The notes: generated from the sequence alone by a model not told the origin. A stretch of DNA of 64,000 nt from Gammaproteobacteria bacterium (GCA_965221835.1 OZ244916.1:1785643-1849642), one strand, 5' to 3'. Positions 3,563 to 15,193 are shown, counted from the stretch's first letter. Program-made: numbers and translations.

Positions 3563-4309
3563 TTATACGGCGTGAATGACAATTTTCGGCATTTCGTCCC
3601 AAGTTCGTTTTTGGAAACTCCTGCCGTTGGCGTGTTTGCCGCGTTTTACGCCGTCCGCGCCCCACGCGCCCCATTGTTTGAAGAAAAATTTGGCATTCGC
3701 GGCGCGGCATTGCCGCTTAATATTCGCCACCCATTCTTTTTGCATCGGACGCGCCTTTCGTCCGGATTCGCCGCCGACAATAACCCAATGAATTCCTTCC
3801 AAACTACGCCGAATATCGCCGAGATCTTCCAGCAACGGTTCCACCGACAAAAAACGAACTTCGGCGGAGATGTCGCGCAATATGCCGATGCGCGGCACGC
3901 CGTGCCTTTTGTTTTCCACCGAAACGCCCAGCCACGCATTCGGCGGCGCGGCGCGAACGGAAAAATATTGTCGCATCACCTTCGGTCGTTTGGTAAGAAT
4001 TTGATAAGTATGCCGCGGCGTTTCGCGAATCGTGTCCATCACTTTGTCAATGAACGGGAACGGTACGCCGGGATGAAATAAATCGGACATGGAATTGACG
4101 AAATAAATTGTCGGCGTTTTGCGGCGGCGCGGTGCGTCCAATCGCCCCTCGTGAAGCGACAACGCGAATCCGTTTTCATATCCCGCCGCACCCATCGCCC
4201 GCAGACGGTGCGCCATCGTTTCGGCATAACAATTTTTGCACCCCGCCGACACCTTAGTACACCCAGTCACCGGATTCCAAGTTTGCTCCGTCCATTCAAT
4301 TGACGACAT
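3563..4309 (-). CDS. phage Gp37/Gp68 family protein (DUF5131), three-Cys motif
   Basis: MSSIEWTEQTWNPVTGCTKVSAGCKNCYAE N-terminus typical of the Gp37/Gp68 family. No adjacent TcmP-like partner gene. Confidence 0.7.
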   Translation of the reverse strand: MSSIEWTEQTWNPVTGCTKVSAGCKNCYAETMAHRLRAMGAAGYENGFALSLHEGRLDAPRRRKTPTIYFVNSMSDLFHPGVPFPFIDKVMDTIRETPRHTYQILTKRPKVMRQYFSVRAAPPNAWLGVSVENKRHGVPRIGILRDISAEVRFLSVEPLLEDLGDIRRSLEGIHWVIVGGESGRKARPMQKEWVANIKRQCRAANAKFFFKQWGAWGADGVKRGKHANGRSFQKRTWDEMPKIVIHAV

Positions 4310-4425
4310 TATGAGTTTCCTCCGTATTTGCTAAATAAATAATACGCTATTTTGTTTGCCGTGTGGTTTGCAAAACAAAATCGGCGAAAGTATAACAAAT
4401 TTTTAACGGCGCAAAAATGTTCCGC

Positions 4426-4479
4426 GGTGGACATTGCGGCAAAAATTGTGGACATTTTTTTGTTTCAATGTCCACATTT
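4426..4479. promoter_or_regulatory. operator-like site: inverted repeat TGTGGACATT-N10-AATGTCCACA plus an upstream direct half-site GTGGACATT
   Basis: Perfect 10-bp inverted repeat at 4447-4456 / 4467-4476. Extra half-site at 4428-4436. Lies in the upstream region of the Gp37/Gp68 gene. Confidence 0.4.
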
Positions 4480-4535
4480 AATCCGTTGCAAACCACATGT
4501 TCCGCCGTGCAACCATGCATTTGCGCGGAATTGCC

Positions 4536-4564
4536 GCCCCAAAATTTCCGCCTTTCGGGCGGGG
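4536..4564. repeat. 29-bp hairpin-forming repeat CCCCAAAATTTCCGCCTTTCGGGCGGGGG, copy 1 (copy 2 at 6146-6174)
   Basis: Identical 29-mer occurs twice as a direct repeat bracketing the RT gene and its upstream non-coding region. It contains the hairpin CCGCC-TTTC-GGGCGG. Confidence 0.75.
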
Positions 4565-4954
4565 GGGCGAAGTGCAAATCCGCACCAACGGATTCGCGGA
4601 GATGAAATTCCGCATGATTCTTCCGTTCGGCGGGCGGGGGAATCCTCGCCGTTGCCTTTTCCGAAAAAAATTATCCCCCGAAAGCGGAACATTGAAAAAT
4701 TTCATATTTTTGGGAGATCAGAGGTTGAAATTTTGTGGCGAAATCCATATAATGAAATTTATGAAATGGAAATAATTTCAATATCGGCGACAAGTGCTTT
4801 CAAGCCCTCTTTGTAGGGGAAATTTCGCTTATCGCCTTTCGATTTGCGCCAAATCAGCGCAATATCGCAAGGGCACAGTATCGCGACATCGTTTTTTTGC
4901 GTTTTTGCGCGATATTTGCAAAAAGTGAAACTATCAGCAGTAAAAAGCTGACGG

Positions 4955-5200
4955 TAAGGGTTTACTTGAAAACAAGGCAAATTTGGCATTTGTCGCTTAT
5001 TATGGCTGACGGAATAAGTATTCCGAATGTCATACGCAACCGGCATTGTGGTTAGCGGTCAGAACAGAAAGGAGGATAAAATGAACTGTTTAATATCATG
5101 CCGGGGTAAATTGCCTTGTTGGTTCTTTGCGATCGGTTGGAAAACGCCAAAATTTAGCGTTTCAATAATCATCGTGCGTTGGAATCAAGAGTAAACCCCA
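4955..5200 (+). ncRNA. candidate retron msr-msd non-coding RNA
   Basis: 9-bp inverted repeat GGGTTTACT (4958-4966) / AGTAAACCC (5190-5198) in a1/a2-like positions, with a2 ~30 nt upstream of the RT start. Internal 13-bp long-range inverted repeat (4971-4984 / 5108-5120). Small hairpins ggaataagtattcc and aaacgc-N9-gcgttt. Structural inference only. Confidence 0.35.
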
Positions 5201-5228
5201 ACAACCGCTTTTATATGAATGGTTTTTT

Positions 5229-6134
5229 ATGATTTGCACCCCAAACCCCATTATTCGCCCTGAATCGCTGTTGAGATTGTTGCGCATCAACAAAAAACAC
5301 CTGCACGACATTTTGTCCGACAAGGAACGCTTTTATACATCTAAAACGCTAACCAAGTGCGACAAAAAAAGGAATGTTTATATTATCAAGAAGCCGTTGA
5401 AACAAATTCTTGATACCATGAAAGACACTATTTTTCTGAATGTGCAATATCCCGCATATCTTCACGGTTCACTGCCGGGAAAAAGCCCGAAGACGAACGC
5501 TAGCGCGCATTGCGGTGCGGTTTCGGCAGTATTGATGGATATTCAATCCTTTTTCCCCTCTATCACTTGCGAGCATGTATATTATATGTTCCGGCATCGC
5601 TTCCAATTTTCCAAAAAAGTATCCAAAATGCTGGCGGACATTATCACATACGATGGGCGGCTTCCCCAAGGATCGCCCGTGAGTTCCTATATTGCAAATT
5701 TGGCGTTGCGAGGCGAAGGCGAATTATATCGGTCGCTTGTTGCCAAAAATTACTGCTATACGCGATATGTAGATGATATTGCCATTTCTTCGCGTTCTAG
5801 TTTGTCGGAGGTGGAATTGCTTAAAATTAAGAAAGAGGTTCAATGTTTGATTAAACATAACAATCTCCATATCAAACGAAAAAAGACCCAACTGTGCAGA
5901 GCGGGAGCGCGTATCGTAATCACCGGATTAGTTGCAGGATCTAACGGTCCCCGAATTCGCAAAGAATATGTTGCGGATGTGCTGGATGATATAAAAGAAA
6001 TATCAAGCCGCGGATTTCACAATGCCGAAATCCAAAGTATCCAAGGCAAGATTCAATATGTTCGCCAATTTTCCTCCTCCAAAAAAGAAGGAGATTATTT
6101 GGACAGACAATTAAGAATCGCCTTGGAAAATTAG
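5229..6134 (+). CDS. retron-type reverse transcriptase
   Basis: RT motifs DIQSFFPSI, LPQGSPVSSYIANLAL, YVDDIAISS. Retron-specific VTG-like motif (ARIVITGLVAG). 301 aa, typical retron RT size. Confidence 0.85.
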   Translation: MICTPNPIIRPESLLRLLRINKKHLHDILSDKERFYTSKTLTKCDKKRNVYIIKKPLKQILDTMKDTIFLNVQYPAYLHGSLPGKSPKTNASAHCGAVSAVLMDIQSFFPSITCEHVYYMFRHRFQFSKKVSKMLADIITYDGRLPQGSPVSSYIANLALRGEGELYRSLVAKNYCYTRYVDDIAISSRSSLSEVELLKIKKEVQCLIKHNNLHIKRKKTQLCRAGARIVITGLVAGSNGPRIRKEYVADVLDDIKEISSRGFHNAEIQSIQGKIQYVRQFSSSKKEGDYLDRQLRIALEN

Positions 6135-6145
6135 CGGGAAAATCA

Positions 6146-6174
6146 CAACTCCCTCCCCAAAATTTCCGCCTTTC
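6146..6174. repeat. 29-bp hairpin repeat, copy 2
   Basis: Identical to 4536-4564. Confidence 0.75.
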
Positions 6175-6509
6175 GGGCGGGGGCGGTTTTGATTTGTTTG
6201 CGGAAATCAGAAGCGATGTACGGAATCCAAACGGAGTTTTCCTTTGTTTGCGAAATCGCCGATTTGTCGCCAATTAAATCCGGCTGACTTTGCATGCTCG
6301 CAAACGTCTATACCCTCAAACGAAAGCGGCGATTTCGGCGTACTGCAACCCGTAATCAGTACGGCGGCGAAAAGAATAGCGGTTCCGATATACAAAGCCG
6401 ACAAAACGCAACGGGAAGAAATCGCCCTCGTTAAACAACGGCAATCCCGCCGCCGCAACGCCGAACGCGGCAAAGCGAAATCCGTCCTCAAATAGTTATA
6501 ATTCAAGGA

Positions 6510-7385
6510 ATGTTCCCAGCCGACATCCAAAAAGAGACCTTTTTTACTCTTGGCGATCAAACGCCGAGTCGCTATCAGTTGTTGGAAACGATTACCCGGT
6601 ATGATAAATGGGGGATGATAAAATTTAAGTTCTCCGACATAATTCAGCGTGCGTTTGCAAAGCAAACAGGACTGGATTTGTTCAATGATTGGCACGACTC
6701 CGAAGCGATGTGGCGCAAATTTGATTCTGATGAGGAATGCCAACTGGCGAAAAAATGGATAAACGAACAAGGGGGTAACACTGTGGTCATCCGCAGTTTG
6801 TTGTCGCTGTGTCTCGCCTTGGATTTTCAAATGCGGACCGGCGACGGGAAAATTGCAGGCAGAACGGAAACGGGAGAATTGGTATACCAAGCCAAACCCA
6901 AAAAAGGACAATCCGCATGGCTCGAAGAAAACCGGCGAGCCATCGGCGTGCTGGTCAACCTCCTCTCCGCAAAAATTCAAAATACCGCCGGCTATCAGAG
7001 TGCCGCATATATCGCCGCCGTTCCGTCCTCTCCCGACAAACCGCTGGATTTGCCGACGGAGTTGGCGAAGCGAATTGCGGAAAAAACGAATCTGCACGAC
7101 ATCGGTGCGGGATTTTCGTATGCCAGCGACAAATTAATGCTTAAAGAAGTTTCCGCGGATAAAAAATGGGTGGAGTTGGAAAAATCCGGAATGGCATTTG
7201 ACCGAAATAAAGGCGGCGCAACCAATCGGCAAAAAGGCGTGATTTTGTTGGACGATTTATATCAATCCGGTGCTACAATGCATTATGCCGCAATGCAGAT
7301 GCAGCGGGCGGGGATGTCGCGCATTTTGGGTTTGACGGCGGTGAAGACAATGCGAAACGATGACAATCAGCAACGAGACAATTGA
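6510..7385 (+). CDS. phosphoribosyltransferase (PRTase)-domain protein, ComF-like; putative retron effector component
   Basis: C-terminal type I PRTase PRPP-binding signature VILLDDLYQSGATM. N-terminal ~190 aa of unknown function. Confidence 0.7.
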   Translation: MFPADIQKETFFTLGDQTPSRYQLLETITRYDKWGMIKFKFSDIIQRAFAKQTGLDLFNDWHDSEAMWRKFDSDEECQLAKKWINEQGGNTVVIRSLLSLCLALDFQMRTGDGKIAGRTETGELVYQAKPKKGQSAWLEENRRAIGVLVNLLSAKIQNTAGYQSAAYIAAVPSSPDKPLDLPTELAKRIAEKTNLHDIGAGFSYASDKLMLKEVSADKKWVELEKSGMAFDRNKGGATNRQKGVILLDDLYQSGATMHYAAMQMQRAGMSRILGLTAVKTMRNDDNQQRDN

Positions 7386-8085
7386 AATTCCGCCGGAGCA
7401 TCGGCTGTATCCGGCGCGGGCGGAGGCGTTTTTGCGCGCGCGTCCGGTATTGTCGGCGATGGGCAACACTTCTTTGTTGACCGCCCCTTTTTCGCTGGGA
7501 ATATGCGGGTCGCGCACCGACGAACGCGGCATTGACGCCGCACGCGCGTTCGTGGAGCAACTCGCGCGCGAAATGCCGGAAATTGTCATTGTCTCCGGCA
7601 ATGCGGCGGGAACCGATTTGGCGGCGCATTACACCGCGCTGAAAAACGGTATTGGAACGATTTTTGTATTGCCGGAAGGCGTTTCGCATTTTCGCATCCG
7701 CAAACAACTGCGCGAAGTTTGGAGTTGGGAAAAAGTGTTGGTTGTCAGTCAATTTCCCGCGGACGCATGTTGGGCGGTGGGGCGGGCGATGGCGCGCAAT
7801 CATCTTATTTTGGCGTTGTCGCGCGCGATGCTGGTTTCCGCCGCCGGAAGTGTCGGCGGCACAAAAGCCGCCGCAGACGCCGCCGTCCGCCACAAAGTTC
7901 CGCTGTTCACTGTCGGCTACAAAGAAAGTTCCCCCGTTGGCAATGTGGATTTGCACCGCCGCCGCTATGCGTTGCCGGTCGGGAAAAAACCGGGCACCGA
8001 TCATGCGAATGTGGACAAAATCGTGCAGACGATAATCGCCTCCGGCGGCGCGGATTCGGCGCAAAACTCTTTCGCTTTGCAATAA
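7360..8085 (+). CDS. DprA/Smf-family (Rossmann/SLOG-like) protein, standalone
   Basis: IVIVSGNAAGTDLAAHYTAL and VLVVSQFPADACWAVGRAMARNHLILALSRAMLVSAAGSVGGT match the DprA Rossmann-fold core. Start overlaps the stop of the PRTase gene (translational coupling). Confidence 0.7.
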   Translation: MTISNETIEIPPEHRLYPARAEAFLRARPVLSAMGNTSLLTAPFSLGICGSRTDERGIDAARAFVEQLAREMPEIVIVSGNAAGTDLAAHYTALKNGIGTIFVLPEGVSHFRIRKQLREVWSWEKVLVVSQFPADACWAVGRAMARNHLILALSRAMLVSAAGSVGGTKAAADAAVRHKVPLFTVGYKESSPVGNVDLHRRRYALPVGKKPGTDHANVDKIVQTIIASGGADSAQNSFALQ

Positions 8086-8286
8086 TCGGCGAATAATCGC
8101 GTTGCGATATTCCCGCCCGTTGCAGTCAAAACGCGAGGCGTACAAACAAAGATATTCCGCGTTTTTGTCCTGCTGCAAATACGAAAACAACTGCCCGCCG
8201 TTGCCCTCCATTTTTTAGTTTCGTTGTCGCATTCCGCGCCCCAAGTTTTGCATTCAATATGCGCGAAAACATTTATAATTGCGGCG

Positions 8287-11200
8287 ATGGGAGAGCGACC
8301 GGTTATTTTGGATAATCAACGCGCGGCGGTGGCGGAATATCTGCGCGCGTGTTTGGAGGGCGCGGATTTGTTTCGCATCGTTTCGGCGTATTTTTCGGTT
8401 TTCGGATATGAAACGTTGGCGGAAAAACTGGAATCCGCGTCCGCGCCGAAAGTGCGTTTTTTGTTCGGCGCGCCCGATTCGGCGGACGATGCCGAATCGG
8501 GCGACAAAACGCAGCGCGTTTTTGCGTTGACCGAATCGGGTTTGTCGGCGAACGAAATGTTGCATCAGCGCGAACTCGCCGAACGATGCGCGGCGTGGAT
8601 TCAAAAAAGTACGGAAGTACGAAAAATTTCGCGACAAAATTTTTTGCACGGCAAAATGTATCATCTGGAATCGAACGCGGACGGCGCGGCGGTGGTCGGC
8701 AGTTCCAACTTTACGCGGCGCGGGATGGGAATGTCGCGAAATCCGAACATAGAAATTAATCTTGCAACGACGAACGCAGAAGATCTCGCCGCGCTGGCGG
8801 AATGGTTTGACGAAGTTTGGGAAGACGAAAAATTAACGGAAGATGCCAAACCGGATCTTCTCGCTGCATTGAAAAGATGGACGGCGGAATACGCACCCGA
8901 ATTTTTATATTACAAAGTTTTGTACGAATTGTTCCGCAACGAAATTCGTGCGCGCGAACAGGAGGGCGACGAATCCGCCGAACGGCTGGACGGTACCGAA
9001 ATATGGAAGACGCTGTACGAATTCCAAAAAGACGGCGCGAGAACCGTCGTCGGGCGGTTGTTGCGGCACGGCGGTTGCATTCTCGCCGACAGCGTGGGAC
9101 TCGGCAAAACTTACACCGCGTTGGCGGCGATAAAATATTTTGAAATGCGCAACAAAAACGTGCTGGTACTTTGTCCGAAAAAACTGGAACAAAACTGGCG
9201 TCTTTATCAGGCGAGTGCCGCCGTTCCGCGCAATCCGTTTGTCGCCGACAAATTCGGTTATCATCTTTTGTCGCACACCGATCTGGGACGCGAAAAAGGG
9301 AAAGTCGGCAACATTGATTTGTCTAAGTTTGATTGGGGCGTTTACGATCTTGTCGTCATTGACGAATCGCACAACTTTCGTAACGATTCTAAAAGTCGCA
9401 GCAACGAAAGCGGCGAAATCGTCCGCCGCAGCCGCTACGAAACATTGCTGGAAGATGTCATAAAAACGGGCGAAAAAACCAAAGTTCTGATGTTGTCGGC
9501 GACGCCGGTTAACAATTCGTTAACCGATTTGCGAAACCAAATTTATTTAATGACCGGCGGGCGCGAAGATGTTTTTGCCGATTCGCTGGGCGTGCGTCAT
9601 ATCAAAACGGTCGTTCGTGCGGCGCAAAGACAATTTCACGAATGGGAAAAACATTCGCACGAAAAGCGGGACAAAGGCGAACTGCTGGCGTCTTTGGGGG
9701 ATGATTTTTTGAATCTACTCGCAGGTGTTACTATCGCCCGTTCGCGGCGGCAGATTAAAAATTTTTACGCCGATTTTATCGCCCGGCATGGCGATTTTCC
9801 GAAGCGCGAAAAACCGCAAAACGAACATCCGCACGCCGATTCGCGCGGCGAGTTTTCGTACGATGAATTGCACGACGATCTTCTGGCATTGAATTTTCAC
9901 ATTTATCGTCCGTCCGATTATGTTGTCGGGGCGGGTGCGCGGGCGCGTTTGGACGAAGAGAAAAAGACGCGCAACTTTAATCAAAAAGATCGCGAAAAGT
10001 TTTTGGTCGCGATGATGCGCGTTAATTTTCTTAAACGATTGGAAAGTTCCGCGCATGCTTGCAAACTCACGCTGGAGCGAACGCTTGCAAAAACGGATGC
10101 GCAAATCGAAAAAATAAATAATTTTTTGCAGCGGCGGGAGGAGGAATCGCAAACAGAACTCCCCGGCGATTCTCCGCGCGAAGCGGAAGGCGAATCGGAG
10201 AACGAATATGCGGAAGACGAAGATTTTGTCGTCAACCGCCGGGCGATGACGCCGTATCGATTATCCGAATTGGATGTGGAAAAATGGCGCGCGGATATGG
10301 CAGAAGACCGGCGCGCTTTGCGGGCGGCGTTGGACAAAGTACAGAAAATTACGCCGGAACGGGACGGCAAAATCGCGCTGCTAAAAAAACAAATCGCCGA
10401 AAAAGCAAAACGCAAAAACCGCAAACTTCTCGTCTTTACCGCCTTTAAAGATACCGCAGAATATCTGTACAATCAACTGCGTAAATGCGCCGAAGAATCG
10501 GGAATAAAAATTGCGTTCGTCGCCGGAGATGAAACCTCTGCCGGCGGCGGGCGAAATGCCTTTCCGGATATTCTCAATCGCTTTTCGCCCCGCGCACGAG
10601 GCGGCGAACCGGGCGCTGATGAAATTGATTTATTAATCGCAACCGATTGCATTTCCGAAGGGCAAAATTTGCAAGATTGCGACACGGTACTAAACTACGA
10701 CATTCATTGGAATCCGGTGCGTTTGATTCAACGTTTCGGGCGCGTAGATCGCATCGGCAGTACGAACAAATCGGTGCGGATGATTAATTATTGGCCGACC
10801 GAAGATATGGATTTTTATCTTAAATTGGAAAACCGCGTACGCGCGCGGATGGCGTTGGCGGATATTGCCGGCACCGGCGACGATGATGCGCTGAACGAAA
10901 AAGAAATGGAAAAATCCGCGCAACAGGAACTGCATTTTCGCAACGAACAACTAAAACAAATGCGCGAGAAAATTAGCGATATGGAGGAAATGGACGATTC
11001 CGTTACGATGTCCGATTTGACATTGGATTATTTCATCACGCAACTTCTCCGTTATCTGCAAAAAAACAAAGACGATCTGGAAGCCGCACCGCCGGGAATT
11101 TATGCGGTCGCGAACGCCGCAGACGGAGAGGCGAAAACCGCACCGCACGACAACGGCGCGATATTTCTTTTTCGCCGCACGAACGCCGCCGAAGACGACC

Positions 11201-11595
11201 GGACGGGTTTTTATCTCGTGCATTGCGAAAACGGAAAAGTGCGCGCGGGGCATCTGAAAGTTCGCGAAACTTTGCGCATTTTTGAATCGCTGGCGAAAGA
11301 CAAAAACAAACCGCTGAAAAAGTTGTGCGACATTTTTTCGCGCGAATTGAAAAGCGAAAACGGCGCGCGCTTTTACGACAAAATGGCAAACGCCGCCGTG
11401 TGCGACATCGGCGACACCGCCGACCGCCGTGCGGGCGAATCGTTGCGGCGCGATGCCGGACGCGGCGGAATGTTGCCGAAAGTTTGCGAACGCCCCGCCG
11501 TCAACAATTTGGAACTCGTTGCGTGGCTGGTCGTCAAAAAAGATGAAATCGGCGCGACAGAGTTGCGCGCGCAACGAACCGCCGCCGATGGTTGA
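8287..11595 (+). CDS. PLD-like nuclease domain fused to SNF2-family helicase
   Basis: N-terminal HKD-like motif HGKMYHLESNADGAAVVGSSNFT. SNF2 motifs DSVGLGKT, DESHNFRN, LMLSATPVNNS, and C-terminal helicase LLIATDCISEGQNLQ...RFGRVDRIGS. ORF track start 8224 is TTG; the first ATG is 8287. Confidence 0.85.
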   Translation: MGERPVILDNQRAAVAEYLRACLEGADLFRIVSAYFSVFGYETLAEKLESASAPKVRFLFGAPDSADDAESGDKTQRVFALTESGLSANEMLHQRELAERCAAWIQKSTEVRKISRQNFLHGKMYHLESNADGAAVVGSSNFTRRGMGMSRNPNIEINLATTNAEDLAALAEWFDEVWEDEKLTEDAKPDLLAALKRWTAEYAPEFLYYKVLYELFRNEIRAREQEGDESAERLDGTEIWKTLYEFQKDGARTVVGRLLRHGGCILADSVGLGKTYTALAAIKYFEMRNKNVLVLCPKKLEQNWRLYQASAAVPRNPFVADKFGYHLLSHTDLGREKGKVGNIDLSKFDWGVYDLVVIDESHNFRNDSKSRSNESGEIVRRSRYETLLEDVIKTGEKTKVLMLSATPVNNSLTDLRNQIYLMTGGREDVFADSLGVRHIKTVVRAAQRQFHEWEKHSHEKRDKGELLASLGDDFLNLLAGVTIARSRRQIKNFYADFIARHGDFPKREKPQNEHPHADSRGEFSYDELHDDLLALNFHIYRPSDYVVGAGARARLDEEKKTRNFNQKDREKFLVAMMRVNFLKRLESSAHACKLTLERTLAKTDAQIEKINNFLQRREEESQTELPGDSPREAEGESENEYAEDEDFVVNRRAMTPYRLSELDVEKWRADMAEDRRALRAALDKVQKITPERDGKIALLKKQIAEKAKRKNRKLLVFTAFKDTAEYLYNQLRKCAEESGIKIAFVAGDETSAGGGRNAFPDILNRFSPRARGGEPGADEIDLLIATDCISEGQNLQDCDTVLNYDIHWNPVRLIQRFGRVDRIGSTNKSVRMINYWPTEDMDFYLKLENRVRARMALADIAGTGDDDALNEKEMEKSAQQELHFRNEQLKQMREKISDMEEMDDSVTMSDLTLDYFITQLLRYLQKNKDDLEAAPPGIYAVANAADGEAKTAPHDNGAIFLFRRTNAAEDDRTGFYLVHCENGKVRAGHLKVRETLRIFESLAKDKNKPLKKLCDIFSRELKSENGARFYDKMANAAVCDIGDTADRRAGESLRRDAGRGGMLPKVCERPAVNNLELVAWLVVKKDEIGATELRAQRTAADG

Positions 11596-11605
11596 AGTTT
11601 GAACA

Positions 11606-14600
11606 ATGGAAAAAACGATGAACGACAATTTGCTGCATAAAACTAAAAACGCCCTCGCCGAATGCATTCGTCCCGCCGAAAACTTCGCCGCCGCGGCGGA
11701 AAACTTACTAAACGCACTCGGCTACGAAAGCGACCGCAAACATGTCGGCGGCAATGATTCGGTACGCGATTTCGTTCGCGATTTTCCCGCGCCGCAAGCG
11801 GAAACAAAAACCGAATCGGAATTCGTCCGCGCCGCAAAATCCGCGCGCATCATCTTTCAATATACCGGAGAAGAAATTAGCAAATCGCAAAACATGTTCG
11901 GCGCGACATTTAACGAGGGCGACATTGAAAGTTTTTTGTTTGTCGCCGTAGAGTTAAAATCCGGCGATTATGCGCGCGGCAAATACGCCGAATTCGCGCG
12001 CGAAATCAACAAGCGATTTGGAATGCCGACGGTCGTTTTGTTTCGCACGGCGGACGGCGCAGATAAATTGTCGCTCGCGTTTGTCGGACGGCGCGCACAC
12101 AAAACCGATTCCGCCCGCGATGTTTTGGAAAAAGTTTCGCTGCTGCGCAATATCAATTGCAACAAACCGCACCGCGGACATTTGGATATTCTTTTGCAAC
12201 TGTCTTTGCAAAATCGGCTGGAATGGATGTCGCGCAACAGCAAGGAAAAAAACTTCGCCGGACTTCTCGCCGCATGGCTGGACGAACTCAACACGGACGC
12301 GTTAAATAAACGTTTTTATGGCGAACTGCTTTCGTGGTTTGAACGCGCAAATCAAAAAATCTGTTTTCCGGCGAACTTGCAAAACAAGCGCGAAGATTGG
12401 ACGATTCGCCTGATTACGCGCCTGCTTTTTGTCTGGTTCGTCAAAGAAAAAAATCTTGTCGCCGAAGATTTGTTTTACAAATCGCAAATTTGCCCGCTGT
12501 TAAAAAATGGTGCGAATCCAACCAACGATTCGTACTATCGCGTTGTTTTGCAAAATCTCTTTTTTGCGACTCTCAATACGCCGATAAAAGATCGCAAATT
12601 CAGCGAAGGCGGACGCGATGCGCATCGCGATTTTTCGCGGTGGCGATATGCCGCCGAAATCGCAAACGACAAATGCAAAGAAAAACTAAAACAACTCTTC
12701 GCGCAAACGCCGTTCATCAACGGCGGACTCTTTGATTGTTTGGACGGCTACGACAGCCCGGCGAGTGCGAAAAACGCCGGACGCGAAGGCGGCGAAGAAC
12801 GGACAGATTATTTTTCGGAATCGTATTACAAAGATTCGCGCATAAAAGACAAGTTGTCGGTTCCCGATTCTTTGTTTTTTGCCGAAAACGGATTGCTTTC
12901 TATTTTCCAAAAATATAAATTTACGGTGGAAGAAAATACGCCGATAGAACAAGAAGTGGCGTTGGATCCGGAACTGCTGGGGCGCGTCTTTGAAAACCTT
13001 CTCGCTTTTTACAATCCGGAAACGCGCGAAAATGCGCGCAAACAAACCGGTTCTTTTTATACCCCGCGCGAAGTTGTAGATTATATGACGCGCGAATCGG
13101 TGGCGGAATGTTTGGCGGCGAAAACCGGTGCGGACGGCGATAAAACGCGCGCGCTTTTGGATTATGCTGCACCTGCTGATCATTCGTTTTCGGCGGCGGA
13201 AGTTAAATCTTTAGTACGTGCAATTTCCGAAATTAAAATTTTTGATCCCGCCGCCGGATCGGGGGCGTTTCCGATGGGCGTTTTGCATCTTCTTACGCTC
13301 GCGCTTTCGCGTTTGGATTCGCAAAATGCGGAATGGCACGAACTGCAAAAAAATCGCGCGCAAAAAGATGCGGCGGAAACCTTTCATCGCGCCGACAAAT
13401 CCGAACGCGGCGAACGGCTGGATGAAATTAACGAAGTTTTTTCGCGCTATTCCGATTCCGATTTCGGGCGCAAATTGTTTCTCATACAAAACAGCATTTT
13501 CGGTGCGGACATTCAGCCGGTCGCATGTCAAATTTCCAAACTGCGATTTTTTATTTCGCTGGCGATAGAACAAAAGCGGGATGCGAACGCGGAAAACTTC
13601 GGCATAAAACCGCTGCCGAATTTGGAAACGCGATTCATCGCCGCCGATTCGCTGATTAAAATCGGCGGCAGGGGACAAGGCGCACTAAAATCGGAAGCGG
13701 CGGCGAAGTTGGAACGCGACCTCGCGGCGAATCGCGAACGGCATTTTAATGCGACCGCCCGCAAAACAAAATTGCACTGCAAAAACAAAGATGAAGAATT
13801 GCGCAAAAAACTTGCGGCAGAGTTGAAAAAAACCAGCGGATTTGATAACGAAGACGCCGGACGCATCGCTGTTTGGAATCCGTACGACCAAAACGCCGCC
13901 GCGAAATGGTTTGATGCGGAATATATGTTCGGCGTCGCCGACGGCTTCGACATCGTCATCGGCAATCCGCCGTATGTGCAATTGCAAAGAGACGGCGGAC
14001 GATTGGCAAATTTATACGCGCCGCAAAACTACGAAAGTTTCGCGCGCACGGGCGATTTGTATATGTTGTTTTACGAACGCGGATTGCAACTTTGCGCGTC
14101 CGGCGGCGGGCTGATGTTTATCACTTCCAACAGTTGGTTGCGCGCAAACTATGGCGCAAATTTGCGCGGCGTTCTCGCCCGCCATAATCCGCGTTTGCTG
14201 ATTAATATGGGCGCGAATGTTTTTGAAAATGTATCTGTTAGCGTGAACATTTTGGGCGTTCAAAATGCACCGAACCGTAATGAATTGTTGGCGAATGATT
14301 TTGTTCGCACGGGCGATTTTCCGCCGTCCGAATGGCATTCCATTGCGCCGAAAAATAAAGACGGATGGGCGATTGTATCCGCGTCTGAAAACACTTTGCG
14401 CGCGAAAATTGAACAGGCGGGAACACCAATTAAGAATTGGAATGTTCGCATGTTTTTCGGTATTAAAACCGGTTATGACAAAGCGTTTTTGATTGATGCG
14501 GCGACCAAACACCGTTTGTGCGCGGAAGATCCGGGCAGTGCGGAAATTATCAAACCGACGATTCGCGGGCGGAATATTGGTAGATACTTTTACGAATCTG

Positions 14601-15193
14601 CTGACGAGTATGTTATCGCTACATTTCCTTCCAAAAATTTGTCTATTGAAAATTTTCCGGCGGTGAAAAAATATTTGCAATCTTTCGGCGACCGTTTAGA
14701 GCAAAGCGGGCGTCCGGGTTGCCGCAAGAAAAGCGCGCATGCGTGGTTTGAAACACAGGACGCAGTCGCGTATTATCCGGAATTTGAAAAAGAAAAATTG
14801 ATTTGGACAGACATCGCCCAAGCCGGACGGTTTTTCTATGACACCGAAAAACTGTACCCGATGGCAAGCGGGTTTGTAATGACCGGAGAAGATATTCAAT
14901 ATCTTCTCGCCGTTCTTAACTCGCGCTTGATCACTTGGTATATGCCAAATGTCGCCGTGAATCTTGGCGATAGCGGGCTTCGATGGAAAAAGATATATGT
15001 GGAAAAACTCCCAATCCCGCAAATTCCCAAAGCGGAACAACGCCCGTTCATAGAGTTGGCACAAAAAATCACCGCCGCCAAAGCAGCAAACCCCGCCGCC
15101 GACACCCACGAATGGGAATCCGAAATAGACCACCGCGTCTACAAACTCTACAACCTAACCAAAAAAGAAATCGCCATAATAGAGGCGGAATGA
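11606..15193 (+). CDS. MmeI/Eco57I-family type IIG-like N6-adenine DNA methyltransferase with N-terminal PD-ExK nuclease-like domain and C-terminal TRD (1195 aa)
   Basis: N-terminal D-x10-ELK (GDIESFLFVAVELK). Motif X FYTPREVVDYM. Motif I DPAAGSGAF. Motif IV IGNPPYVQ. Long C-terminal region. Confidence 0.85.
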   Translation: MEKTMNDNLLHKTKNALAECIRPAENFAAAAENLLNALGYESDRKHVGGNDSVRDFVRDFPAPQAETKTESEFVRAAKSARIIFQYTGEEISKSQNMFGATFNEGDIESFLFVAVELKSGDYARGKYAEFAREINKRFGMPTVVLFRTADGADKLSLAFVGRRAHKTDSARDVLEKVSLLRNINCNKPHRGHLDILLQLSLQNRLEWMSRNSKEKNFAGLLAAWLDELNTDALNKRFYGELLSWFERANQKICFPANLQNKREDWTIRLITRLLFVWFVKEKNLVAEDLFYKSQICPLLKNGANPTNDSYYRVVLQNLFFATLNTPIKDRKFSEGGRDAHRDFSRWRYAAEIANDKCKEKLKQLFAQTPFINGGLFDCLDGYDSPASAKNAGREGGEERTDYFSESYYKDSRIKDKLSVPDSLFFAENGLLSIFQKYKFTVEENTPIEQEVALDPELLGRVFENLLAFYNPETRENARKQTGSFYTPREVVDYMTRESVAECLAAKTGADGDKTRALLDYAAPADHSFSAAEVKSLVRAISEIKIFDPAAGSGAFPMGVLHLLTLALSRLDSQNAEWHELQKNRAQKDAAETFHRADKSERGERLDEINEVFSRYSDSDFGRKLFLIQNSIFGADIQPVACQISKLRFFISLAIEQKRDANAENFGIKPLPNLETRFIAADSLIKIGGRGQGALKSEAAAKLERDLAANRERHFNATARKTKLHCKNKDEELRKKLAAELKKTSGFDNEDAGRIAVWNPYDQNAAAKWFDAEYMFGVADGFDIVIGNPPYVQLQRDGGRLANLYAPQNYESFARTGDLYMLFYERGLQLCASGGGLMFITSNSWLRANYGANLRGVLARHNPRLLINMGANVFENVSVSVNILGVQNAPNRNELLANDFVRTGDFPPSEWHSIAPKNKDGWAIVSASENTLRAKIEQAGTPIKNWNVRMFFGIKTGYDKAFLIDAATKHRLCAEDPGSAEIIKPTIRGRNIGRYFYESADEYVIATFPSKNLSIENFPAVKKYLQSFGDRLEQSGRPGCRKKSAHAWFETQDAVAYYPEFEKEKLIWTDIAQAGRFFYDTEKLYPMASGFVMTGEDIQYLLAVLNSRLITWYMPNVAVNLGDSGLRWKKIYVEKLPIPQIPKAEQRPFIELAQKITAAKAANPAADTHEWESEIDHRVYKLYNLTKKEIAIIEAE

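Follow-up and report, generated by a model that had tools for sequence, protein, structure and literature searches.

A compact Type VI-like retron and a divergent ShosTA/PsyrTA-like gene pair side by side in a gammaproteobacterial defence island

Positions 4536-8085 of a 64,000-nt stretch of DNA from a gammaproteobacterium (GCA_965221835.1 OZ244916.1:1785643-1849642; hereafter the window, whose positions are used throughout) carry a gene for a reverse transcriptase (RT), followed on the same strand by genes for a phosphoribosyltransferase (PRTase)-fold protein and a DprA-like protein. An earlier reading made from the sequence alone (the sequence-only reading) had taken the three genes for a single three-component retron. 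We consider it very likely that the interval instead holds two independent anti-phage modules, which are neighbours in a variable defence island located downstream of guaB. The first (~4725-6196) is a compact Type VI-like retron consisting of a promoter, a structured RNA of ~470 nt, an open reading frame (ORF) for a 37-aa small protein (SP), the RT and a terminator, with no gene for a helix-turn-helix (HTH) protein. The second (6510-8085) is a divergent toxin-antitoxin pair of the ShosTA/PsyrTA kind. The analysis, which included a set of related loci (L001-L014), showed the gene content, the RNA architecture, the family assignments and the independence of both modules. Each is a variant of recently characterised systems, and what stands out most in the interval is the branch of Type VI without an HTH gene. 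The retron locus of the sequence-only reading stood, as did its coordinates and gene identities, whereas the comparative evidence did not uphold the PRTase and DprA-like genes as partners of the RT, no linkage being found in either RT or PRTase loci. The 37-aa ORF, the promoter at 4725-4753 and a direct repeat around the retron had not figured in that reading.

A Type VI retron RT separate from the PRTase-DprA pair

The RT gene (5229-6134, + strand) encodes a protein of 301 aa in which we read YVDD, a VTG motif (IVITGLVAG) and an NAxxH motif (TNASAH). It scored 63.7 bits against Pfam RVT_1, and all 25 PADLOC matches listed for it are retron RT profiles, headed by RT_VI at 222 bits and followed by RT_V at 162 and RT_III-A at 159. 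In NCBIfam, three retron models gave 142, 102 and 102 bits, as against 43 for the group II intron RT and at most 50 for Drt and Abi models. Because the retron scores in both collections far exceed those of the group II, Drt and Abi families, we take the protein to be a retron RT. The sequence-only reading had called it retron-type on its length and VTG motif, and PADLOC, the NCBIfam retron models and the motifs agree with that call; no grouping with group II or Abi/UG RTs was seen, the retron models scoring far higher. RT_VI was the top profile by 40-60 bits for the window RT and seven other members of its clade, and was best wherever scored among the eleven RTs of that clade. A neighbour-joining tree, which is distance-based only, recovers this clade as monophyletic, beside 74 canonical Type VI RTs. 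Identity to the window RT is 64% in L002, 57% in L003 and 40-57% over L003-L007, and the closest RT among the reference-genome contigs scanned, from which the 80 Type VI loci used below were drawn, is 37% identical. By these profile and tree comparisons the RT is assigned to the Type VI clade of retrons and not to the PRTase-associated Type III-A. The class, to which Retron-Vpa2, Retron-Eco12 and Retron-Sen3 are said to belong, reportedly goes back to Mestre et al. in 2020.

A single three-component retron, in which multicopy single-stranded DNA (msDNA) made by the RT would be sensed by the PRTase and DprA-like proteins as effectors, has several features in its favour. In the window, L001 and L002 the genes are neighbours in one orientation. 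Type III-A retrons, for example the Ec107-like and Vc81 groups, have PRTase effectors and likewise combine a retron RT and a PRTase-fold protein in one neighbourhood, and ShosA-type proteins bind single-stranded DNA (ssDNA). However, the window RT is of Type VI and scores well below its RT_VI value on the RT_III-A profile, and the two sets of genes are not linked elsewhere. We assessed linkage from both sides, using an RT-side sample of 80 Type VI RT loci from reference genomes together with the RT relatives L003-L007, and a PRTase-side sample of 88 loci outside the window's own configuration, made up of seven closer loci (L008-L014) and 81 further loci of the DDLYQSG PRTase family (443 kb). 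No PRTase or DprA-like ORF was found within 5 kb of the RT at any of the 80 Type VI loci, and the pair is absent at L003-L007, where the RT is neighboured by a Type I specificity (S) subunit, a methylase, TIR proteins and transposases. On the PRTase side, a DprA-like gene follows the PRTase gene in all seven closer loci, with no RT there. It is likewise adjacent downstream in 68 of the 72 further loci that have room for it (of 81), and a retron-type RT occurs in none of the 81. In contrast to Type III-A, then, the PRTase gene stands next to no other RT relative examined, and its family travels with the DprA-like gene.

Closely related strains from one kind of sample separate the two modules further. 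Both retron and pair are present in the window and L001. In L002 the order is a PDC-M41A gene, a divergent retron, a gene for a 523-aa AriAB-like ATPase and the pair, so that another cassette intervenes, and L008 has the pair at the equivalent site with neither the retron nor the repeat that borders it. Identity between the window and L002 is 97-99% in the flanks (98.8% from 6145 onward) as against 71% for the retron cassette, the pair being ~99% identical across strains. Between the window and L001 the reverse is seen, with no differences over 4642-6134 and 5-15 per kb in the flanks. Since divergence is discordant in both comparisons and strain content differs as well, the alignments indicate that the retron is exchanged independently of the pair. 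The retron unit has its own promoter-like and terminator-like sites, the latter standing with a 375-nt spacer between the two units, and it has its own embedded effector ORF. Given all this, we attach almost no probability to the three genes forming one retron. An 83-aa ORF at 6244-6495 was considered as a third partner and set aside; it has no family match and lies in the spacer, which belongs to the conserved flank.

A looser relationship would be one in which the modules are separate in origin but cooperate, for example if the DprA-like protein bound the retron cDNA and thereby compensated for the HTH protein or tuned the retron. The retron does lack the HTH protein that controls the toxin in the Type VI systems studied, ShosA binds ssDNA, which modulates its interaction with RecA (PMC11961720, PMC12961424), and the pair is present in both strains with this retron lineage at the site. 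Yet the HTH-less clade members L003-L007 are without the pair, so the clade does not depend on it, and the pair is a constant part of the island whether or not the retron is there. We therefore judge cooperation to be unlikely, and retain the description of the interval as two independent modules.

Leader RNA, small protein and the absent HTH gene

In published Type VI retrons, one "hybrid" transcript contains a structured RNA and encodes a small toxic protein, and the system also has an RT and an HTH protein of Cro/C1 type (bioRxiv 10.1101/2025.10.22.683967, 10.64898/2026.04.27.721009). In the window, the best promoter-like site of the region is of sigma-70 type (TTGAAA-17-TATAAT, 4725-4753, +, 11 of 12 positions matched); both hexamers are kept in L002 and L003, and the site is predicted to serve the retron transcript. 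Between it and the RT lies a leader of ~470 nt (4760-5228, +) that resembles the hybrid RNA by its fold z-scores, covariation and shared topology. The window RNA folded below every shuffle tried, with minimum free energy (MFE) z-scores of -4.6 for 477 nt and -3.7 for 302 nt. When the 700 nt upstream of the RT were aligned for the window and two relatives (L002 and L003), a hairpin at 4805-4819 (+) fell in a kept block, and the consensus fold of the three sequences contained 17 pairs with compensatory changes.

The leader is organised around two long-range helices. The outer, a1/a2-like helix of 10 bp (4958-4967 with 5189-5198, +) includes a perfect 9-mer inverted repeat (GGGTTTACT at 4958-4966 and AGTAAACCC at 5190-5198), the second arm of which lies 30 nt before the RT start. 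By our estimate ~0.2 such 9-mers are expected by chance within ~300 nt, so that the repeat is not rare, and its significance comes from conservation rather than from chance rarity: the helix is kept in the two relatives with a compensatory T>C/A>G change, and an equivalent helix of unrelated sequence is found in four more diverged loci. The first arm is directly preceded on its 5′ side by a 5-bp stem-loop (UCAGC/GCUGA, 4934-4951, +), which L002 and L003 retain (loop sizes of 8, 8 and 3 nt) and which has analogous hairpins in L004-L007; a stem-loop in this place matches the published description of the Type VI cl2075 lineage. Within the inner helix (4971-4983 with 5108-5120, +) lie two conserved hairpins as well as the SP start. 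Independent MFE folds of the seven loci, which have almost no sequence in common between subgroups, gave an identical nested topology in which a small hairpin is followed by an outer helix ending at the SP stop, an inner helix surrounding two hairpins and the SP start, and a further hairpin in the distal SP coding region. The inverted repeat upstream of the RT and the structured nature of this RNA, both proposed in the sequence-only reading, were thus borne out, the internal hairpins being conserved and the helix recurring in seven loci. A conserved G (4968) after the 5′ arm in the three close loci is only suggestive of a branching G, and an Rfam scan of 4000-8400 with E up to 10 returned chance-level matches only and no retron RNA family.

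Within the retron RNA there are two copies of the octamer GCTGACGG, one at 4947-4954 as the 3′ arm of the small stem-loop and one at 5005-5012 in the first inner hairpin, and the octamer is conserved in L002 and L003. This duplication is reminiscent of direct repeats that are likewise conserved and are reported from loops of the hybrid RNA of Vpa2.

The SP ORF (5081-5194, +; 37 aa, MNCLISCRGKLPCWFFAIGWKTPKFSVSIIIVRWNQE) is preceded by AGGAGG at 5070-5075, and its stop codon, 34 nt from the RT start, belongs to the 3′ arm of the outer helix. All seven RT-clade loci have an ORF of 34-42 aa at the equivalent place, 29-88 nt before the RT (29-41 in six of them), with a GGAGG-type ribosome-binding site (RBS) in the 20 nt upstream in five, and in every case the predicted product is basic with a hydrophobic C-terminus. 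The L005 and L007 versions differ by five synonymous changes and a stop-codon swap, against two conservative replacements. Pfam gave no match for the SP, nor for a 95-aa antisense ORF (4759-5046), the 55-aa extended SP frame, the 83-aa ORF in the downstream spacer or a 77-aa ORF of L005. By its position and character the SP corresponds to the small toxic protein of the Type VI hybrid RNA, and we propose it as the candidate effector of the retron. Several features thus align the locus with Type VI: the RT has its highest score on the Type VI profile and groups in the tree next to canonical members, the long structured RNA upstream of it harbours a small ORF that has an RBS of its own, this ORF is bracketed by a long-range helix, and the C-terminus of the SP is hydrophobic. 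Other features set it apart. The SP is shorter (34-42 aa across the clade) and has no apparent resemblance to the few canonical small ORFs that we inspected by eye, the RNA is more compact, with the 5′ arm only ~115 nt before the SP start, and there is no Cro/C1-type HTH gene between SP and RT.

The HTH search covered all ORFs of at least 20 aa in 4310-5260 on both strands, and found none but the SP between the promoter and the RT. In contrast, 74 of the 80 canonical Type VI loci from reference genomes have an ORF of 79-116 aa abutting the RT, and all four of those sampled are HTH_3. The protein is reported to act as an antitoxin in Sen3 and as a repressor in Vpa2 (bioRxiv 10.1101/2025.10.22.683967, 10.64898/2026.04.27.721009), and because its gene is absent, toxin control in the window retron must differ from these HTH-dependent schemes. 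One explanation would be that the retron is a decaying remnant that lost its HTH gene, had its neighbours deleted and no longer functions. Besides the missing gene itself, this would fit the deletions in the island of the window strain, where the PDC-M41A partner and the ATPase cassette of L002 are both missing. However, the RT ORF is intact, with complete catalytic motifs and full-length profile coverage, the changes between SP ORFs are mostly synonymous in the comparison of L005 with L007, and promoter, RBS and helices are conserved. In addition, all seven loci of the clade, which is monophyletic and reaches down to 38% identity between RTs, share the HTH-less SP-RT layout. We therefore consider decay very improbable, and since the layout extends over the whole clade, these comparisons indicate that the HTH-less architecture is an old, maintained branch rather than a recent loss.

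How such a branch would work can be outlined on the model of Vpa2 and Sen3, two Type VI retrons described in the literature. The RT would bind the structured RNA, and the small hydrophobic SP would be a toxic effector, kept silent in uninfected cells. As there is no HTH partner, only the RNA structure and/or the RT would be left to restrain it. Recombination functions of the phage, or inhibition of RecBCD, may then alter the levels of cDNA (msDNA) or otherwise release the toxin, so that infection would be aborted. We entertain as a tentative possibility, which we would not put at even chances, that the retron represents a truly minimal variant of Type VI with only two components, in which the 37-aa peptide inside the RT's RNA is the sole effector and no protein antitoxin or repressor takes part.

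A trimmed relative of ShosTA and PsyrTA

The second module begins with a ShosT/PsyrT-like PRTase toxin candidate (6510-7385, +; 291 aa), which has a ComF-like PRTase domain at about residues 120-285 and the phosphoribosyl pyrophosphate (PRPP) loop VILLDDLYQSGAT. It is overlapped by 26 nt by the gene of a ShosA/PsyrA-like DprA-fold antitoxin candidate (7360-8085, +; 241 aa) that consists of the Rossmann domain only. For the latter protein we obtained 101 bits with DNA_processg_A, 111.5 with PsyrA and 75.8 with ShosA, and matches in the PDB to DprA (1e-10) and ShosA (9vzo, 3.5e-3); its residues 30-224 align to ShosA 122-316, and the protein starts at the Rossmann domain. The PADLOC defence-profile matches of the pair are to PsyrA, ShosA, PsyrT and ShosT only. 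The PRTase is seen chiefly by structure. A PDB sequence search with the single sequence found nothing and one with a seq​uence profile of seven members found the PRPP loop only, whereas the predicted structure had ShosT as its top Foldseek match in the PDB and a fold closest to ComF. Only ~156 residues of the 291-aa model, the PRTase domain, align to any PDB chain, and the N-terminal ~115 aa have no recognisable match.

These results agree with the PRTase and DprA-like identities given to the two genes in the sequence-only reading, through the fold match to ComF and the DNA_processg_A score, and they qualify two of its expectations. A profile match was clear for the DprA-like protein, whereas Pribosyltran stayed below its cut-off. 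The suggested resemblance to the competence proteins ComFC and DprA holds for the folds, the PRTase being closest to ComF and its partner DprA-like, but both proteins score far under the NCBIfam cut-offs for true members (comF 16.6 against 233, dprA 79.6 against 191). Unlike competence genes, moreover, they form an overlapping pair in a defence island and not part of a competence regulon.

The closer likeness is to ShosTA and PsyrTA, in which a PRTase-fold toxin gene likewise precedes a gene for a DprA-like protein in a two-gene operon. The window pair has the PRTase fold with an acidic PRPP-binding loop and the DprA-like gene directly downstream, and across many loci the two genes are kept together as an autonomous unit. 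ShosT has an N-terminal pyrophosphatase-like domain and ShosA an N-terminal SAM domain (PMC11961720, PMC12961424). The window proteins have neither: the unmatched N-terminal ~115 aa of the toxin candidate take the place of the ~164-aa pyrophosphatase-like hydrolase domain of ShosT, or of the RecQ-like part of PsyrT, and the antitoxin candidate is without the SAM domain and the C-terminal tail of ShosA. The pair fits best as a divergent ShosTA/PsyrTA-group member in trimmed form. By analogy with ShosTA, the PRTase would use PRPP and so poison nucleotide metabolism and DNA replication, while the DprA-like protein would bind ssDNA and RecA and counteract the damage; phage interference with this antitoxin may then free the toxin.

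Codons 1-92 of the PRTase gene (6510-6786) are replaced by divergent sequence in L008 (8001-8298), the remainder being ~98% identical. This places a recombination breakpoint within the PRTase gene, and the N-terminal domain looks swappable, with a possible role in sensing.

A number of points weigh against the description of the interval as two functional modules of these families. For the pair, the sequence matches of the PRTase are weak (Pribosyltran 16.6 bits, below cut-off; PsyrT 28.8; ShosT 20.3), and its N-terminal domain does not resemble the pyrophosphatase domain that ShosT has. For the retron, the covariation evidence comes from few sequences, three close and four distant, and sequestration of the RBS is not predicted consistently across folds. 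The HTH protein is important in the published Type VI work, and a version without it might work differently or be crippled. Retron and pair do occur together in two strains, where occasional cross-talk is conceivable. For both modules, toxicity, triggers and msDNA production are what we infer from the characterised systems.

Repeat-bounded cassettes and the surrounding island

The retron cassette is bounded by a direct repeat of 37 nt (4529-4565 and 6147-6183) with a 29-nt core, of which the window has two exact copies where none is expected. The left border is a long copy of ~105-110 nt (4529-4641, +) in which the core is exact and at the 3′ end of which a terminator-like hairpin begins (stem 4633-4650). 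At the right border (6147-6196, +), identified by repeat match and fold, the short copy (6147-6183) itself forms a terminator-like hairpin, with a T tract after it. L002 has three copies (7368-7466, 8928-9035 and 10698-10729), which bracket the retron and the ATPase cassette, and L008 has none. As the repeat brackets each variable cassette, and as cassette and flanks diverge discordantly, it suggests that cassette exchange is mediated by the repeat. No recombinase was identified for the repeat-bounded cassettes, and an exact-pattern scan for the repeat in JGI metagenomes gave no matches. The long repeat folds as ssDNA or RNA (z = -2.9), and a reading of it as an integron attC site was considered on account of this folding and not established, there being no integrase among the ORFs scanned.

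The defence island extends from guaB to ~17 kb, after which housekeeping genes including parB and mnmG follow. MnmG is 79% identical to its counterpart in a gammaproteobacterial MAG, and by this protein the host can be assigned only to the uncultured Pseudomonadota. The ATPase gene of L002 (9109-10680; AAA_15/AAA_21, best PADLOC match AriAB at 104 bits) forms a repeat-bounded cassette of its own between the retron and the pair, absent in the window. Upstream of the retron, the window has a DUF5131 gene (3563-4309, - strand; PADLOC PDC-M41B/M30B, ~350 bits). Its PDC-M41A partner is present in L002 (6491-7330, 243 bits), and L008 has a different gene of 352 aa in that place (6647-7705). The window is without PDC-M41A, which leaves an orphan B gene and a palindrome-rich spacer of 220 nt (4310-4528). 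Downstream of the pair, an HKD(PLD)-SNF2 helicase (8224-11595; PADLOC C3a139, 373 bits) adjoins a Type IIG restriction-methylase-like protein (11606-15193, 456 bits). The latter contains the most divergent part between the window and L001 (13000-14100, with 97 differences in the 13000-13999 bins), as expected for a target-recognition domain, and a similar Eco57I/TaqI_C methylase gene lies directly upstream of the PRTase-DprA pair in L009. A degenerate, AT-rich tandem array (1822-2054; ~44 nt x 5, or ~145 nt x 2) between a 140-aa ORF and the guaB 3′ end is also found in sister strains, in rearranged form.

For annotation, the comparison averts an error, as an apparent retron with ComFC/DprA-like effectors turns out to be two systems that merely share one island. 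The repeat-bounded, strain-variable cassettes illustrate the swapping of complete defence modules at one chromosomal site, and the trimmed ShosTA relative shows which parts of that system are dispensable. For Type VI retrons, the HTH protein is necessary in both systems studied, and the HTH-less branch offers a natural test of whether RNA structure and RT alone restrain the toxin. If it is a truly minimal variant, the overlap between the 3′ arm of the priming-type helix and the stop codon of the peptide would have reverse transcription start on the toxin coding sequence, and cDNA synthesis would be coupled directly to toxin expression.

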